Positions 22,313 through 32,435 of a stretch of 64,000 bases of DNA are shown here, one piece after another; within the stretch, counting starts at the first letter, position 1, and each line of letters begins with the position of its first letter. The notes beneath the pieces were generated by a model. The model was not told the origin of the DNA. It worked only from the letters and a program-made list of their open reading frames with translations, and did no database searches. Source of the stretch: a virus (Duplodnaviria > Heunggongvirae > Uroviricota > Caudoviricetes); IMG/VR virus record IMGVR_UViG_3300023179_004209, positions 167,832 through 231,831 of that record. One strand, written 5' to 3'. The position numbers and the translations under genes are program-made.

Positions 22313-22510
22313 TCATTCATCGTCACCTTCAATATCTTTTGAAGATGCCAATGGAAGTGAATTTGTTTCTTCAACAATAGCTTTAATTTCGCTCTCAATC
22401 TCTTTCATCTTTTCTTTATAACCAGCAGCTACATCCTTGAAATCTTTCTTCACAAAGATTAACTTTTCTGTCAACTCATACACTTTCTTTTCTGCTTCTT
22501 GTTTTGTCAT
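22313..22510 (-). CDS. Small coiled-coil hypothetical protein
   Basis: 65 aa ORF. Confidence 0.65.
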   Translation of the reverse strand: MTKQEAEKKVYELTEKLIFVKKDFKDVAAGYKEKMKEIESEIKAIVEETNSLPLASSKDIEGDDE

Positions 22511-22550
22511 ATACTATATTTTATTATTTGTTTTTACTTATTACCGAAAT

Positions 22551-22935
22551 TGGTGGACATAAAGGGAGTCGAACCCTTGTCTTTAAAACAGTATCATAAT
22601 CAGACTACGTGTGTATACATTTTTTAGTTGTTAAGAACAATTATATTAAATGTCAAAACTAATTGTCCTAAAGATTTACAAAATATTCAACCAACAACGC
22701 AAATCAAATTGTTGATATAGCCTGATAGTTTACACTCAATATTATTATCAGACATCATAATATCAAATGTGCAGCCAAATTAGGCTGCTAGTGCTACTGC
22801 ATCACGGGAGGTGAAGTTGTAGCTGATTACATTATCTTCAGCAGTTAATGTTTTGATAGAAGTTTTAAGAGGCCAACTATCATCCTCTACACGCCTAACT
22901 AGTCAATTGTCTTAAATCGAAACCAGTATATGCCC
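22551..22935 (-). ncRNA. ssrA: tmRNA; tag AEDNVISYNFTSRDAVALAA encoded at 22780-22842
   Basis: 5' GGGCATA pairs with 3' TATGTCC-ACCA with a G3:U70 Ala wobble; T-arm AAGGGTTCGACTCCCTT; tag ORF ends ALAA-stop within the GCAGCC/GGCTGC hairpin. Confidence 0.95.
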
Positions 22936-22943
22936 ATAAATTC

Positions 22944-23198
22944 TCAAAGATCAAAAAATTCTTTATACGAAATTGTTTCATCCAACCCTAATTCTCGTCT
23001 CATATTTGCAAATAACTCTTTACCTCTTTCAACAGAAACTGGTTGGTTTAATTCTTCTCTTTTAATATCTTTAATAACAATTTCTATCTCACGACGAATT
23101 CTATTAGATTCAATCGGATTATTATCCTTTGTTTCTAACTCGTCTTGTAATTGACTCAATTTATTTTTTAAGTCATTTAACTTTTTATTTGTATTCAT
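22944..23198 (-). CDS. Hypothetical protein
   Basis: 84 aa ORF between tRNA array 1 and tmRNA. Confidence 0.65.
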   Translation of the reverse strand: MNTNKKLNDLKNKLSQLQDELETKDNNPIESNRIRREIEIVIKDIKREELNQPVSVERGKELFANMRRELGLDETISYKEFFDL

Positions 23199-23226
23199 TC
23201 TTATAAATATATAAATATTTTAAAAA

Positions 23227-23300
23227 TGGAGCGGGTAGCCGGAATCGAACCGGCACATCGACCTTGGCAAGGTTGCAGGCTACCACTACATCATACCCGC
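23227..23300 (-). tRNA. tRNA-Gly(GCC)
   Basis: Cloverleaf, loop TTGCCAA, encoded CCA. Confidence 0.9.
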
Positions 23301-23309
23301 TTACAAATT

Positions 23310-23384
23310 TGGTGGACCGTAAGAGAATCGAACTCTTCCCTAAAGCTTGCAAAGCTCCCGTGCTACCACTATCACTAACAGCCC
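23310..23384 (-). tRNA. tRNA-Ala(TGC)
   Basis: Cloverleaf, loop TTTGCAA, G3:U70, CCA. Confidence 0.9.
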
Positions 23385-23443
23385 ATATCTATTAAAGAAC
23401 TTACACCAATATATAGTATAAGTCAAATCAAAAAACAAAAATC

Positions 23444-23559
23444 TATCAGACACCTTGACGGTTTTATGGGCATATTTAACCCACAGATTATTAGCCAAAC
23501 ACAGCCGTTGGTTATTGTTTCGGACCTAACCAAGTTCAAACCTCTACCTTTGTCTGATA
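23444..23559 (-). ncRNA. Putative structured non-tRNA RNA inside array 1
   Basis: Terminal 9-bp stem TATCAGACA/TGTCTGATA enclosing hairpins TTGGTTA/TAACCAA and TGGG/CCCA. Confidence 0.5.
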
Positions 23560-23566
23560 TAAAAAA

Positions 23567-23642
23567 TGGTCGGAATGACAGGACTCGCACCTGCAACCTC
23601 CTAGCTCCAAACCAGGCCGTCTACTATTGACATTACATTCCG
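23567..23642 (-). tRNA. tRNA-Pro(TGG)
   Basis: Cloverleaf, loop TTTGGAG, T-loop variant TGCGAGT, CCA. Confidence 0.88.
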
Positions 23643-23649
23643 ATTAAAT

Positions 23650-23723
23650 TGGCAGGGGATAAGGGAATCGAACCCCCACAAGAAGATTCAAAGTCTTCCG
23701 CACTACCATTATGCAAATCCCCA
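23650..23723 (-). tRNA. tRNA-Gln(TTG)
   Basis: Cloverleaf, loop CTTTGAA, CCA. Confidence 0.9.
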
Positions 23724-23730
23724 GTTAAAT

Positions 23731-23804
23731 TGGAGCGGGTAGAGGGAATCGAACCCTCTCATGGGCTTTGGAAGAGCCCCAGGCTACCGTTACATCACAC
23801 CCGC
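23731..23804 (-). tRNA. tRNA-Gly(TCC)
   Basis: Cloverleaf, loop CTTCCAA, CCA. Confidence 0.9.
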
Positions 23805-23811
23805 TTTAAAA

Positions 23812-23901
23812 TGGCGGAAAGAGAAGGATTTGAACCTTCGGGGGTTTTAAGGCCCCGGAGCTTTAGCAAAGCTCTGCATTAGACCACTCTGCCACCTTTC
23901 C
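23812..23901 (-). tRNA. tRNA-Ser(GCT)
   Basis: Long variable arm, loop TTGCTAA, CCA. Confidence 0.92.
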
Positions 23902-23984
23902 GTAAAATTTTGACAATCTCTGATTTCTTCATGGGACGATATTATCAGTCCTCAGTTCCAATGTCAAGTGGAGTTGTATTAAAA

Positions 23985-24071
23985 TGGCGGAAGCAGTAGG
24001 ACTTGCACCTACGAGGGTTTCTGGCCCCAGGCGTTTTCAAGACGCTTTCCTCGACTAGCCGGACTACTTCC
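23985..24071 (-). tRNA. tRNA-Ser(TGA)
   Basis: Long variable arm, loop CTTGAAA, atypical D-arm, CCA. Confidence 0.82.
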
Positions 24072-24082
24072 GTAAAATAAAT

Positions 24083-24160
24083 TGGTGGACCAGGTGAGAA
24101 TCGAACTCACATCAGATTGATTGCAAATCAGTCTCGCTTAGCCTTAGAACATGCTAGCCC
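24083..24160 (-). tRNA. tRNA-Ala(TGC), divergent copy
   Basis: Loop TTTGCAA, G3:U70, atypical D-arm, CCA. Confidence 0.75.
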
Positions 24161-24171
24161 ATAAAATAAAT

Positions 24172-24256
24172 TGGTGGGCATAGAGGGACTTGAACCCCCA
24201 CGGATTGCTCCACGAGCTTCTAAGACTCGCATGGCTGCCAATTACATCATACGCCC
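24172..24256 (-). tRNA. tRNA-Leu(TAG)
   Basis: Long variable arm, loop CTTAGAA, CCA. Confidence 0.92.
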
Positions 24257-24263
24257 AATAAAA

Positions 24264-24341
24264 TGGTCGGAATGATAGGATTTGAACCTACGACATCTTG
24301 CTCCCAAAGCAAGCGCTCTAGCCAAACTGAGCTACATTCCG
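24264..24341 (-). tRNA. tRNA-Pro(TGG)
   Basis: Canonical cloverleaf, loop TTTGGGA, CCA. Confidence 0.93.
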
Positions 24342-24348
24342 ATTAAAA

Positions 24349-24423
24349 TGGTAGGCGGTAAAGGATTTGAACCTCTGGCCTTGACCGTGTAAAGGTCCTG
24401 CTCTTCCACTGAGCTAACCGCCC
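24349..24423 (-). tRNA. tRNA-Val(TAC)
   Basis: Canonical cloverleaf, loop TTTACAC, CCA. Confidence 0.92.
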
Positions 24424-24455
24424 ATTTAAAAATCGTTATTTAACTTATTCCAATT

Positions 24456-24552
24456 ATCGCCAGTTGGGTTCTGCACTAAACATAACACCCAGTGACCGAT
24501 CAAGTGTTTTAACTTTCGTTGGGGACACCAGATAGAGTTTCAACCCCGAACA
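24456..24552 (-). ncRNA. Conserved structured leader RNA, copy 1 (5' of tRNA array 1)
   Basis: Homologous to 33477-33590: TTGAAACTCYATCTG, TTGATYGGTC, TGGGTGTTATGTT...TGCAGAACCCA...GGCGAT, with compensatory stem changes. Confidence 0.7.
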
Positions 24553-24559
24553 TGTATTT

Positions 24560-24587
24560 AATTTACCACACCTTCTCATTTTGTCAA
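24560..24587 (-). promoter_or_regulatory. Sigma70-type promoter of tRNA array 1
   Basis: TTGACA-16bp-TAAATT with extended -10 TG. Confidence 0.7.
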
Positions 24588-24592
24588 CACCT

Positions 24593-24635
24593 AAAAATCA
24601 AAAACCCGTCATTCTTTTTTTGAAGTGACGGGTTG
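24593..24635 (-). terminator. Attenuator terminator 1
   Basis: AACCCGTCA..TTC/GAA..TGACGGGTT stem plus TTTGATTTTT. Confidence 0.85.
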
Positions 24636-24662
24636 GTTCTTTAAGAGCAAACAACCTCGCAC

Positions 24663-24716
24663 TCAACTTCCGGATGGGAGTTGACTTGCTTGACTAGGTT
24701 GTGAAACTGAATTCAT
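24663..24716 (-). CDS. Leader peptide 1 MNSVSQPSQASQLPSGS (17 aa)
   Basis: Manual translation; preceded by TATATATT promoter-like motif; stop codon overlaps the antiterminator strand; composition matches array 1 tRNAs. Confidence 0.8.
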   Translation of the reverse strand: MNSVSQPSQASQLPSGS

Positions 24717-24758
24717 ACTATGACAATATATATGTAAAAATTTTTGAAATCAACAAAT

Positions 24759-26117
24759 TTATTTACATTTTATTAAATTTTTAAACTTGTCTAATACTGA
24801 TGACTTGGTTTCAACAATAAAATTATTCTTGTTATTAACCAATTTAATTTCATTAATCACTGGCTCATTTGGTACTGGACCTACAGGTACGGCATTACCA
24901 TATGAATTGATTGGTGGCCACCATCCACCCAAATTCTTCAATAAATTATTTGTATCAACATTAATATTATTTTCTTGAATTATAATATTTTTAAATGCAG
25001 GCGTAGATAAATTCAAATCTCTATCCATACTGTATCCCAAAAATATTCCATCCCATGGTGCATACTTTCCTGGCTTCCAATTCCATGTTCCTTTACCAGT
25101 TGTTTTAACATTATTGTTTCTAATAATCAAATCATGATGATATGCATAGTTTACCGCCCACCATTCATTGCCATATTGTCTTACATAGTTTTGCGCACTT
25201 AATCTAATAAAACAAGGAACTTCTAGTCCACTATTTTCTTCGACAATTGTTCCAATATTCATTCCAGTGTCAACATAATAACACATTCCTTGAAATCCAT
25301 CAAAGTTATTTTTTCTAATCACCGCACCTTTTGTATTAGCAACACTAATACCAGCTAATGGAGAAAATTGTGTTTTACCAGCGTCACCTCTAAATGTACA
25401 ATATTCAACTAAACATTGTGCAGCAAACACTTTACCAGCCAAATGTCCACCTACTTGTACATGTACAATTTGTTCTGTATCATGTTCTGGATATCTATTA
25501 TTTCTGCCTGGTGAATGAAAATCGCATCTTCTTACAGTAGTTCCTTTTGCACCATCTTTTGAATTCTTTGATAATAATGATATGATAATAAATGATGTGG
25601 CATTATCTTTACCCACATTAAATCCTTTAAATTCACAATCTTCATATAATGTATTACTACCAAATGTAGTACAACCGGCAGTGGTTAATTCACCGCCTTT
25701 AGCTTCATTTATTTCATCATAGTTACCGTCAAAAGTAATTCCTTTAAATACTATGTTCTTACAATCTACACTACCATCACCACCAGGTCCAACTGCCTGA
25801 ACCATAATCAATTGATTTCCATTTACCGCCAAATCTCTTCTACCACTTAAATATTTGGATAATTTTAAAATTGTTTTACCTTTACCCTTTCCAATTATTT
25901 GAACTCCTGATTCATTTTGTTTTGGATTCCAACCCCATAAAATACCACTTTTTAATACCTTTTCTGGATCATTTTCACTGATTCCTTCTCCACCAATATA
26001 ATATGTACCTTCATCAAGTTCACAAATATTATTTTCCATTATACACTTATTGATTGCGTATGCGGAGTTTACTTTTATATCATTTGGCTTTGCGCCATAT
26101 TGTTCTGGTTTACTCAT
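24759..26117 (-). CDS. Right-handed parallel beta-helix protein (pectate-lyase-like; possible depolymerase)
   Basis: 452 aa; N-terminal EQYGAKPND motif, G.GKGKTILK, repeated xExNxF/IxNN beta-helix rungs. Confidence 0.6.
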   Translation of the reverse strand: MSKPEQYGAKPNDIKVNSAYAINKCIMENNICELDEGTYYIGGEGISENDPEKVLKSGILWGWNPKQNESGVQIIGKGKGKTILKLSKYLSGRRDLAVNGNQLIMVQAVGPGGDGSVDCKNIVFKGITFDGNYDEINEAKGGELTTAGCTTFGSNTLYEDCEFKGFNVGKDNATSFIIISLLSKNSKDGAKGTTVRRCDFHSPGRNNRYPEHDTEQIVHVQVGGHLAGKVFAAQCLVEYCTFRGDAGKTQFSPLAGISVANTKGAVIRKNNFDGFQGMCYYVDTGMNIGTIVEENSGLEVPCFIRLSAQNYVRQYGNEWWAVNYAYHHDLIIRNNNVKTTGKGTWNWKPGKYAPWDGIFLGYSMDRDLNLSTPAFKNIIIQENNINVDTNNLLKNLGGWWPPINSYGNAVPVGPVPNEPVINEIKLVNNKNNFIVETKSSVLDKFKNLIKCK

Positions 26118-26139
26118 ATATTATATTCCTTCTATATAA

Positions 26140-26177
26140 ACTAAAAACCTGCCATCCTTTTTGAATGACAGGTTTAC
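26140..26177 (-). terminator. Intrinsic terminator
   Basis: AAACCTGTCATTC-AAAAAA-GGATGGCAGGTTT-TT. Confidence 0.75.
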
Positions 26178-26196
26178 AATTTATATTTTTATTTTA

Positions 26197-26301
26197 TTAT
26201 CTAGCTCCACTTGGTTTTGGAGTTCCACTTGGCTTTGGTGTGCCTGTTGGTTTTGGAGTTGAACTTGGAGTACCACTTGGTTTTGGAGTTGGTGTTGGCA
26301 T
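26197..26301 (-). CDS. Small TPKPSG-repeat peptide (34 aa)
   Basis: MPTPTPKPSGTPSSTPKPTGTPKPSGTPKPSGAR; AAAGGA upstream; synonymous variation between repeats; downstream terminator. Confidence 0.65.
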   Translation of the reverse strand: MPTPTPKPSGTPSSTPKPTGTPKPSGTPKPSGAR

Positions 26302-30761: not shown

Positions 30762-30772
30762 GTTATATAAAA

Positions 30773-30846
30773 TGGTTGACCGTGCCGGTTACGCTCCGGC
30801 GTAGGACGATTATCAGTCGTCTATTCTGCTATTGAATTAACGGTCA
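30773..30846 (-). tRNA. tRNA-Ile(GAT)
   Basis: Loop CTGATAA; atypical T-loop AGCGTAA; CCA. Confidence 0.8.
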
Positions 30847-30853
30847 ATTGAAA

Positions 30854-30927
30854 TGGCGGCCATACGGGGTTACGCTCCCCGGACTTCCCTTAGACAGAGG
30901 GTTAGGTTACTATTACTTTATATGGCC
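30854..30927 (-). tRNA. tRNA-Asp(GTC)
   Basis: Loop CTGTCTA; G73; atypical T-loop AGCGTAA; CCA. Confidence 0.78.
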
Positions 30928-30932
30928 AAAAT

Positions 30933-31010
30933 TGGTGCTGTGCTCTCCACGCCGTCTCTGTGTTTTACCGATTGTACCGGTCGGCAGTCACTTATGGGGC
31001 CAGTTACCCA
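30933..31010 (-). ncRNA. CCA-ending non-canonical RNA in array 2
   Basis: GC-rich ~78 nt unit spaced like its tRNA neighbours and ending GCACCA, but with no cloverleaf; hairpins TGGG/CCCA, ACCG/CGGT and GCCG/CGGC. Confidence 0.4.
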
Positions 31011-31016
31011 TTAAAT

Positions 31017-31095
31017 TGGTGGAGCCAGTGGGTAATGCTCCCACACGAATCGTCCGGTTAAAAGCCGGCTGCCCGTCTATTGTGGCTTTGACTCC
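31017..31095 (-). tRNA. tRNA-Lys(TTT)
   Basis: Loop CTTTTAA; atypical D- and T-loops; CCA. Confidence 0.8.
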
Positions 31096-31101
31096 ATAAA
31101 T

Positions 31102-31217
31102 TGGTGGTCTAGGTATGGACTTTAACCATACATTCACTGCTTTCGTTTCGGATTGATTACCGTATCCAGCAGCCCTGCGTTTAAATTTCGCCCGATCTTG
31201 CGTTGATCTACTAGACC
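31102..31217 (-). ncRNA. Oversized tRNA-like RNA (116 nt)
   Basis: Perfect acceptor GGTCTAG/CTAGACC-ACCA, D-like GATC/GATC arm, T-like GTATGG/CCATAC arm, very large variable region, no standard anticodon loop. Confidence 0.65.
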
Positions 31218-31891: not shown

Positions 31892-32368
31892 TTAAATTGT
31901 CAATAAACCTGCGTGAACTTCTCCGTGACAATTATGACATAATAACTCACACTTGTCAACTTCTAATTTTAACTTATCAAAACTAACAGATTGTCCACTA
32001 ATTTGAAAATCTTTTTGTAAAGGATCTTTATGATGAAATGTAAGATTACCAAAATAATTTTTGTATCCACACTTTATACACTTACCGCCTTTATATTCAA
32101 CTAATTTTTGTTTAGTTCTTACTCTCCAATCAACAACGGATTTTACTCTTCTGGTTTTTCTTTCTTCATTCGTTAATTTATTTTTGCCTACCGGTCTAGT
32201 ATTTAGATACTTTATCAGAGTTCCTCTACAATGTCCATATTTTTTTTGACAATCTCTTAAAGAATTTCCATCGTCATAAAATGCTTGAATTTCTTTAAGT
32301 TCAGAATCAGTGATTGTTTTAATCCCCGCTAAAATTCTTTTTTGTTTTATAATATCAGATGTTACCAT
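31892..32368 (-). CDS. HNH endonuclease (free-standing, inside tRNA array)
   Basis: CIKCGY...LTFHHKDP...KCELLCHNCHGEVH motif; N-terminal HTH-like segment. Confidence 0.9.
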   Translation of the reverse strand: MVTSDIIKQKRILAGIKTITDSELKEIQAFYDDGNSLRDCQKKYGHCRGTLIKYLNTRPVGKNKLTNEERKTRRVKSVVDWRVRTKQKLVEYKGGKCIKCGYKNYFGNLTFHHKDPLQKDFQISGQSVSFDKLKLEVDKCELLCHNCHGEVHAGLLTI

Positions 32369-32435
32369 ATAATTAACTTTCTATGTTAATAAATAGGTAA
32401 CAGGTTAACAAAACAATTATAATTTTATTAGAAAA

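Follow-up and report, generated by a model that had tools for sequence, protein, structure and literature searches.

Attenuation by a leader peptide is textbook knowledge for amino-acid operons and for a small number of synthetase genes, and the trp, hisL, leuL, thrL and pheL leaders are its classic attenuators, the choice made at trp being kinetic in the textbook view. The leaders of ilvGMEDA (Ile, Val and Leu) and thr (Thr and Ile) are multivalent, each responding to two or three amino acids made by the pathway it controls. T-box RNAs, elements of 200-300 nt with a specifier loop and a T-box motif, bind uncharged tRNA directly. The E. coli trp attenuator has been modelled (PMC1183508) and histidine leaders have been described ahead of hisS paralogs (PMC2965389). 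In a full-text literature search, we came across no account of attenuation by a leader peptide, either upstream of tRNA genes or in any phage. Here we describe a phage unit that, like the E. coli trpL, his, leu, thr and phe leaders, has a short ORF and four RNA segments capable of 1:2, 2:3 and 3:4 pairings. We interpret it as a ribosome-mediated attenuator that would feed decoding demand back onto a tRNA array, and assign this reading a probability of roughly 0.65; it would be a known mechanism in a new setting, with tRNA genes as its target.

The unit belongs to an uncultured giant phage of about 30% G+C. The stretch analysed (the window, 64,000 nt) comprises positions 167832-231831 of its 295,831-base IMG/VR record, and the DNA runs in which the window occurs come from lakes, rivers and freshwater sediment, indicating a freshwater provenance. 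Every feature of the attenuator finding is on the minus strand (Table 1). Downstream of the unit, array 1 encodes, in order, Val, Pro, Leu, Ala, a probable Ser(UGA), Ser(GCU), Gly, Gln, a second Pro(UGG), Ala and Gly tRNAs, so that Pro (one gene at 23642-23570, minus strand), Ala and Gly are each present twice and Ser is represented by the GCU gene and the probable UGA gene. The identity of the latter is given as probable in the window; ARAGORN calls the counterpart gene in relatives.

Table 1. Positions, in window coordinates, of the features of the unit, of its surroundings and of the parallel unit.
Feature	Position	Strand	Basis or description
452-aa ORF, upstream of the unit	26117-24759	-	ORF call
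Small-unit promoter	24753-24725	-	Promoter scan: -35 TTGATT (24753-24748), 17-nt spacer, -10 TATATT (24730-24725)
Leader ORF, 17 codons + TGA, no SD	24716-24663	-	ATG 24716, TGA 24665-24663; product MNSVSQPSQASQLPSGS
Segment 1, ACAACCU, 5' strand of helix 1:2	24696..24702	-	Codons 5-7 (Ser-Gln-Pro)
Inner hairpin inside helix 1:2	24663..24684	-	Folds; 3' strand ends in the stop codon
Segment 2	24651..24664	-	Starts inside TGA; partners are segment 1 (via 24657-24651) or the terminator 5' arm
Segment 3: terminator 5' arm (24634-24626) + loop-side bases	24622..24635	-	Antiterminator partner of segment 2
Terminator	24634-24593	-	Arms AACCCGTCA (24634-24626) and TGACGGGTT (24611-24603), then TTTTTGATTTTT
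Segment 4: terminator 3' arm (24611-24603) + U tract	24593..24611	-	
Sigma70-type promoter between terminator and tRNAs	24587-24560	-	TTGACA, 16 nt, TGgTAAATT; 10/12 matches, with TG
Structured leader RNA, ~125 nt, promoter to tRNA-Val	24552-24424	-	Conserved in many relatives; no Rfam match
tRNA array 1	23227..24423	-	tRNA-Val first, at 24423
tmRNA, downstream of array 1	22935-22551	-	
Parallel unit	33882-33732	-	25-codon leader (conserved ATG 33874), in-ORF antiterminator strand, terminator, two sigma70-type promoters
Leader-RNA paralog, ahead of other arrays	33592-33478	-	

BLAST of positions 22400-26200 against 50,697 phage records returned tRNA-level matches only and found no cultured relative, and a Pfam search of the neighbouring proteins left the 452-aa ORF without a family, giving no functional link. 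Three baits were used to fetch relatives: the protein encoded upstream, a DNA pattern from within the ORF, and the motif of the post-promoter leader RNA. Together they recovered more than 30 IMG/VR contigs. From these we parsed 33 units, and additional ones were obtained via a covariance model. Eight hits to the leader-RNA motif (L033, L038, L041, L043, L045, L046, L048 and L056) were dropped as high-GC chance matches in coding DNA. The genome's third tRNA array, which lies outside the window, is preceded only by a sigma70-type promoter and a 68-aa ORF; the absence of a mini-ORF and a terminator there counts against the attenuator reading.

The leader ORF stays open in all relatives. Its ATG in the window is 8 nt past the -10. 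In the diverged clades, the unit promoter has a TTGACA, TTGACG or TTGATG hexamer followed after 17 nt by TGATATATA, and the spacing from TATATA to ATG is 7-11 nt across the 33 units (7-9 nt in the diverged clades and 8-11 nt in units of the window type). Given that the ATG follows TATATA by so few nucleotides, it is plausible that the leader mRNA starts at or just before the A of the ATG and is thus leaderless. Leaderless or near-leaderless mRNAs may be widespread in this phage, as suggested by the scarcity of SD cores (ahead of 12% of 313 phage ORFs vs. 5% in the background), the T found at -1 in 74% and the TATATA located 3-9 nt before the ATG in many of the large genes of the phage genome. 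A T4-type late promoter label for the TATATA motif was considered and not adopted. Conservation sets in with the -35 of the unit itself, and the genes upstream of it vary among contigs; we therefore assign the unit to the array rather than to the 452-aa gene.

The composition of the leader peptide closely matches the content of the array. Fifteen of the 16 residues after Met fall within the array 1 set (V, P, L, A, S, G and Q), seven amino acids that account for 41% of the phage proteins, and a random peptide would reach this score with a probability of 1.4e-5. The score is unique among the 1613 ATG ORFs of 15-30 aa found in six frames of the 296-kb genome, and not one of 15,513 dinucleotide shuffles of the ORF body that were free of stops attained it. 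The other two frames of the leader contain stops and score 6-8/17. The composition is frame-specific and is not due to base composition. The first-pass annotation had listed codons for both Ser boxes, Gln, Pro, Ala, Gly, Leu and Val in the leader, and that list is correct as given. A possible correspondence between TTG leader codons and a tRNA-Leu(CAA) in the array was dropped, being inconsistent across units.

The same match recurs in six diverged leader types of 17, 18 or 24 codons, in which 12-20 of 16-23 residues belong to the set, each of them significant relative to shuffles, and all six diverged clades sit ahead of Val/Pro/Leu/Ala/Ser/Gly/Gln arrays. Units of the window type keep their composition and geometry across clades, while their sequence changes and their peptides are of low complexity. 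Within the close clade, most replacements stay in the set (Q to L, A to V, L to S or A, and S to L, V or P). Residues from outside the set, a point against the attenuator reading, include N in all leaders and I, T, R, K, F, Y or D in some. Leader-peptide attenuators are expected to carry codons cognate to what the genes behind them supply, and here such codons take the form of the 15/16 composition, recurring in six clades.

We also asked how common this arrangement is in the genome, defining a cassette by a TATATA-type -10, an ATG within 14 nt, 10-38 codons, and a hairpin with a T run 30-90 nt past the stop. Five cassettes of that form occur in the 296-kb genome and two of the five are located ahead of tRNA arrays. 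Another of the five (26301-26197, minus strand) has a 34-codon ORF, rich in Pro/Thr/Lys/Ser/Gly repeats, behind a TATATA; it is followed by a strong terminator (26175-26145) and sits ahead of the 452-aa gene. In two of the relatives (L050:133-252 and L055:8927-9046) the leader promoter and ATG are missing, and a longer upstream ORF with VTVSEP repeats reads into the leader's 3' half and shares its stop codon. This apparent fusion counts against the attenuator reading.

The RNA elements proposed earlier for the region are all present at the coordinates given. Segment 1 had been said to pair with AGGTTGT, and on the minus strand 24702-24696 is complementary to this motif at 24657-24651 over 7 bp (helix 1:2), a candidate protector helix whose segment 1 lies within the ORF. 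The inner hairpin enclosed by this helix occupies the same place in every clade with differing sequence, the stop codon always being its end and its loop varying freely among relatives. The terminator arms and U tract are likewise as described, consisting of a G+C-rich stem-loop (-15.0 kcal/mol, z -3.25) that leads directly into the U tract, and this intrinsic terminator is positioned between the leader ORF and the genes that it would regulate. The fold of the whole region has a z of -3.6, and in each of the 33 units the U tract follows the stop at a distance of 53-62 nt.

To evaluate covariation we used a model-based alignment of 27 units, which leans to the structure of the model. In this alignment, the off state (helix 1:2, inner hairpin and terminator) is 93.9% paired, compared to 86.1 +/- 0.6 in shuffles, and 16 of 27 pairs are compensatory, compared to 6.0 +/- 1.8 (0/500 shuffles as high); when partners are slid, pairing drops to 26-50%. 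Compensatory changes are seen at 7/7 pairs of helix 1:2 (27 units, the alignment being fitted to the model structure), and changes on both sides at 7/11 pairs of the terminator. An Rfam search of 24380-24800, whether at the gathering score or with the limit relaxed to E = 10, gave no match to a leader family (Trp, His, Leu, Thr and others) or to the T-box.

The antiterminator was described as a pairing of about 12 bp, with two bulges, between a segment 2 that begins in the stop codon and the stretch at 24623-24635. We recovered it as 24664-24652 paired with 24635-24623 over 12-14 bp with two bulges, at -15.2 kcal/mol (RNAduplex), with a z of -2.8; 2/300 dinucleotide shuffles matched or beat it. 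When no register is imposed, the best upstream partner of the terminator arm falls in a fixed place in 33/33 units, at stop+0 to +14/19 in all units of the window type and at -21 to -3 in most units of the second type, with duplex energies of -15 to -25 kcal/mol and z of -1.6 to -5.8. Cognate strand/arm pairs average -18.5 kcal/mol vs. -11.5 kcal/mol for non-cognate ones (seven units with distinct arms), an advantage matched by 2/5040 permutations for the window type and 152/5040 for the second type. Fixed-register covariation of 2:3 in a MAFFT alignment was not better than chance (79.5% paired vs. 78.3% in shuffles, 67/500), and the register-free energy test is the only significant one for this helix. 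Overall, the trp-like layout and its link to the array are supported by the composition, its recurrence in six clades, the covariation and the complementarity across 33 units.

The parallel unit precedes arrays 2 and 3. All nine amino acids served by these arrays occur in its leader, a property found in only two of the 1613 ORFs, and P, L, A, S and Q are absent from it. In relatives the ORF is kept, with TAA/TAG stop changes and synonymous changes. The last codons of the ORF pair with the terminator 5' arm, and one pair can be followed through relatives from A-U via G.U to G-C (GAC/GUC, GGC/GUC and, in L058, GGC/GCC). Across relatives, the arrays behind second-type units encode Thr, Arg, Trp, Asn, Phe, Lys, Ile, Glu, Asp, Tyr and His tRNAs, and these are the other residues of the second-type leader. 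As judged from these comparisons, the second unit shows the same apparent logic with a complementary amino-acid set.

Several unusual features were noted among the tRNA genes of this part of the window, all on the minus strand. A tRNA-Asn(GUU)-like gene (31890-31768) carries a 51-nt insert immediately past the anticodon. Four RNA libraries have contigs, at depths of up to 470, in which 31857 is linked directly to 31805 and the insert is missing; it is either spliced or absent from co-occurring strains. ARAGORN calls a tRNA at 33245-33170 whose anticodon loop has eight bases and whose anticodon has four (CUCU). Several CCA-ended tRNA-like sequences at 30762-31200 and 32720-32640 are called by neither ARAGORN nor Rfam, one of them having a 5-nt anticodon loop around CAU. 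An HNH endonuclease-like ORF (32365-31900) lies between tRNA genes, and it is probably missing in related strains because RNA contigs of several runs join 31893 to 32432 across it.

The chief rival to the attenuator is a stand-alone small gene acting in trans, in the form of a leaderless micro-ORF, a ~120-nt small RNA or both. The pairings and the array would then be incidental, or a trans role would exist on top of attenuation, as for rnTrpL/peTrpL. Such a gene would account for the unit's own promoter and terminator, for the covarying RNA helices, for the separate promoter of the tRNA array, and for the second-unit peptide, which is conserved in sequence with synonymous changes. There are also precedents from Sinorhizobium, where both attenuator RNAs and leader peptides have documented trans functions (PMC6614838, PMC7298713). 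We nevertheless consider this explanation unlikely. The window-type units conserve composition and not sequence, and their low-complexity peptides differ from clade to clade; two unrelated peptides share one architecture, each mirroring its own array; and the strand that can pair with the terminator arm is invariably adjacent to the stop codon, an arrangement for which a plain small gene has no need.

If, as the attenuator reading supposes, the ORF is translated and the ribosome is coupled to the polymerase, the unit could work as follows. The promoter would start an RNA with the AUG at its 5' end or within ~3 nt of it, and the ribosome would meet 17 codons, nearly all of which are predicted to be decoded by tRNAs of the array past the terminator. 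When decoding is fast, a ribosome at the UGA would cover segment 2, the terminator arms would pair, and RNA polymerase would stop at the U tract. When a charged tRNA of the set is scarce, an earlier stall would cover segment 1 and leave segment 2 free to capture the terminator 5' arm as it emerges, resulting in antitermination. Read-through would then continue via the next promoter, the leader RNA and the tRNA genes, as a demand-driven addition to the output of the constitutive sigma70-type promoter.

Folding calculations agree with the original proposal that ribosome position sets termination or read-through. Hiding the RNA to stop+15, to mimic a ribosome at the stop, leaves the terminator without a competitor. 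If the first 33-45 nt are hidden instead, as by a stalled ribosome, and the 3' arm is not yet made, 9-12 of the 12 arm bases end up sequestered. The step by which absence of translation would give termination fares less well. In most units, a naked transcript that still lacks the 3' arm already favours 2:3 over 1:2 in stability, and this step would thus rest on folding order and not on energy. Termination may depend mainly on a ribosome reaching the stop, with untranslated RNA giving read-through. The antiterminator is also the weaker state at equilibrium: with segment 1 masked, the terminator state of the window is ~9 kcal/mol more stable than the antiterminator state, and the switch must therefore be kinetic.

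That naked RNA can adopt both states, and that the helices covary, would also fit a ribosome-independent RNA switch, in which a factor, tRNA or small molecule selects between 1:2 + 3:4 and 2:3 and the ORF is a by-product. This seems improbable to us, as the region has no match to an Rfam family, T-box included, and no conserved loop or bulge for binding (the loop of the inner hairpin is free to vary), and the frame-specific composition and the fixed position of the stop would be left unexplained.

An attenuator at this locus would not be the sole control of the array. The hexamers of the sigma70-type promoter past the terminator are kept in every clade while its spacers vary, indicating that this promoter is real, and promoter-like sites also occur within array 1. 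With a conserved promoter past the terminator, downstream expression does not depend on read-through, which is not needed for tRNA synthesis and can only add to it. Tandem regulated and constitutive promoters occur elsewhere. The structured leader RNA that follows the promoter contains the motif GGSTTGAAACTCYATCTG and has a consensus fold of 20 pairs, 6 of them compensatory; in relatives L013 and L029 an unrelated leader takes its place.

In three river metatranscriptomes, contigs of the array, the leader RNA and the tmRNA have depths of 20-500, those of the array and leader RNA alone being 20-100, whereas the depth of the 452-aa gene is about 0-2. One RNA-library contig (X17 record 9) extends from the tRNAs past the sigma70 promoter to 24610, upstream of the expected start of this promoter, and is a weak hint of transcripts arriving from upstream, given that contigs cannot give RNA ends or levels. 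The listed RNA contigs lie outside 24611-24716. Contig ends at 24601 and 24610 were set aside as RNA ends, as they fall in the most variable part of the hairpin. At the tmRNA, a 390-nt RNA contig (22547-22937, minus strand; depth 518, one run) joins the end of the gene to its start ("goes back 391"), which would be a circular or tandem form.

An ordinary intrinsic terminator of the 452-aa gene that insulates the tRNA promoter, with the ORF and the complementarities arising by chance, would suit a gene that has no other terminator before this one and the terminator-then-promoter modules common in phages, but is very improbable given that the module begins at its own -35 behind differing upstream genes, that chance does not account for the ORF composition, that geometry and helices are kept across diverged clades, and that the array and leader RNA are far deeper than the 452-aa gene in the river metatranscriptomes.

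Extending the attenuator reading to both units, we lean slightly toward a broader proposal for large aquatic phages. Their tRNA genes could be split into arrays, each with a leaderless multi-codon test ORF that reports decoding, and antitermination would top up the matching tRNA set, for example when the host pool is exhausted, codon-mismatched or cut by tRNA-targeting defences; the two leaders together sample nearly all amino acids. If this is true, phage tRNA arrays are feedback-regulated by decoding demand and not merely expressed, which bears on the reason why phages carry tRNAs, be it codon-usage matching or escape from tRNA-cleaving defences (PMC11555353). The unit would also be a compact natural sensor of the supply of several tRNAs together, and could explain conserved phage intergenic mini-ORFs that annotation now ignores. 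At ~160 nt and with sigma70-type signals, it is directly testable in E. coli or in a cell-free system.

Compared to known systems, the unit resembles trp in that its stop codon adjoins segment 2, so that a terminating ribosome would favour the terminator, and in having an intrinsic terminator with a U tract and an antiterminator weaker than the terminator, such that the choice would be kinetic. It differs from trp in that the naked transcript favours 2:3 over 1:2 before the 3' arm exists. Unlike trp-type leaders in general, it has no SD, a nearly leaderless start and an extra hairpin inside helix 1:2, and a strong promoter stands between the terminator and the regulated genes, which are tRNA genes and not biosynthetic enzymes. 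As in the T-box, tRNA status would be coupled to terminator read-through via an antiterminator, here without a specifier loop, T-box motif or Rfam match. The pheST (pheM) and hisS leaders are similar in placing the translation apparatus under attenuation, with tRNA charging or supply as the signal; however, these serve cellular synthetases, with one amino acid each, whereas the genes here are tRNA genes and belong to a phage. Lastly, one leader would sense several amino acids, as in ilvGMEDA and thr. In place of the run of one regulatory codon found in trp-type leaders, however, the phage leader samples seven amino acids, a set that is given by the downstream tRNAs, and the second leader covers most of the others.
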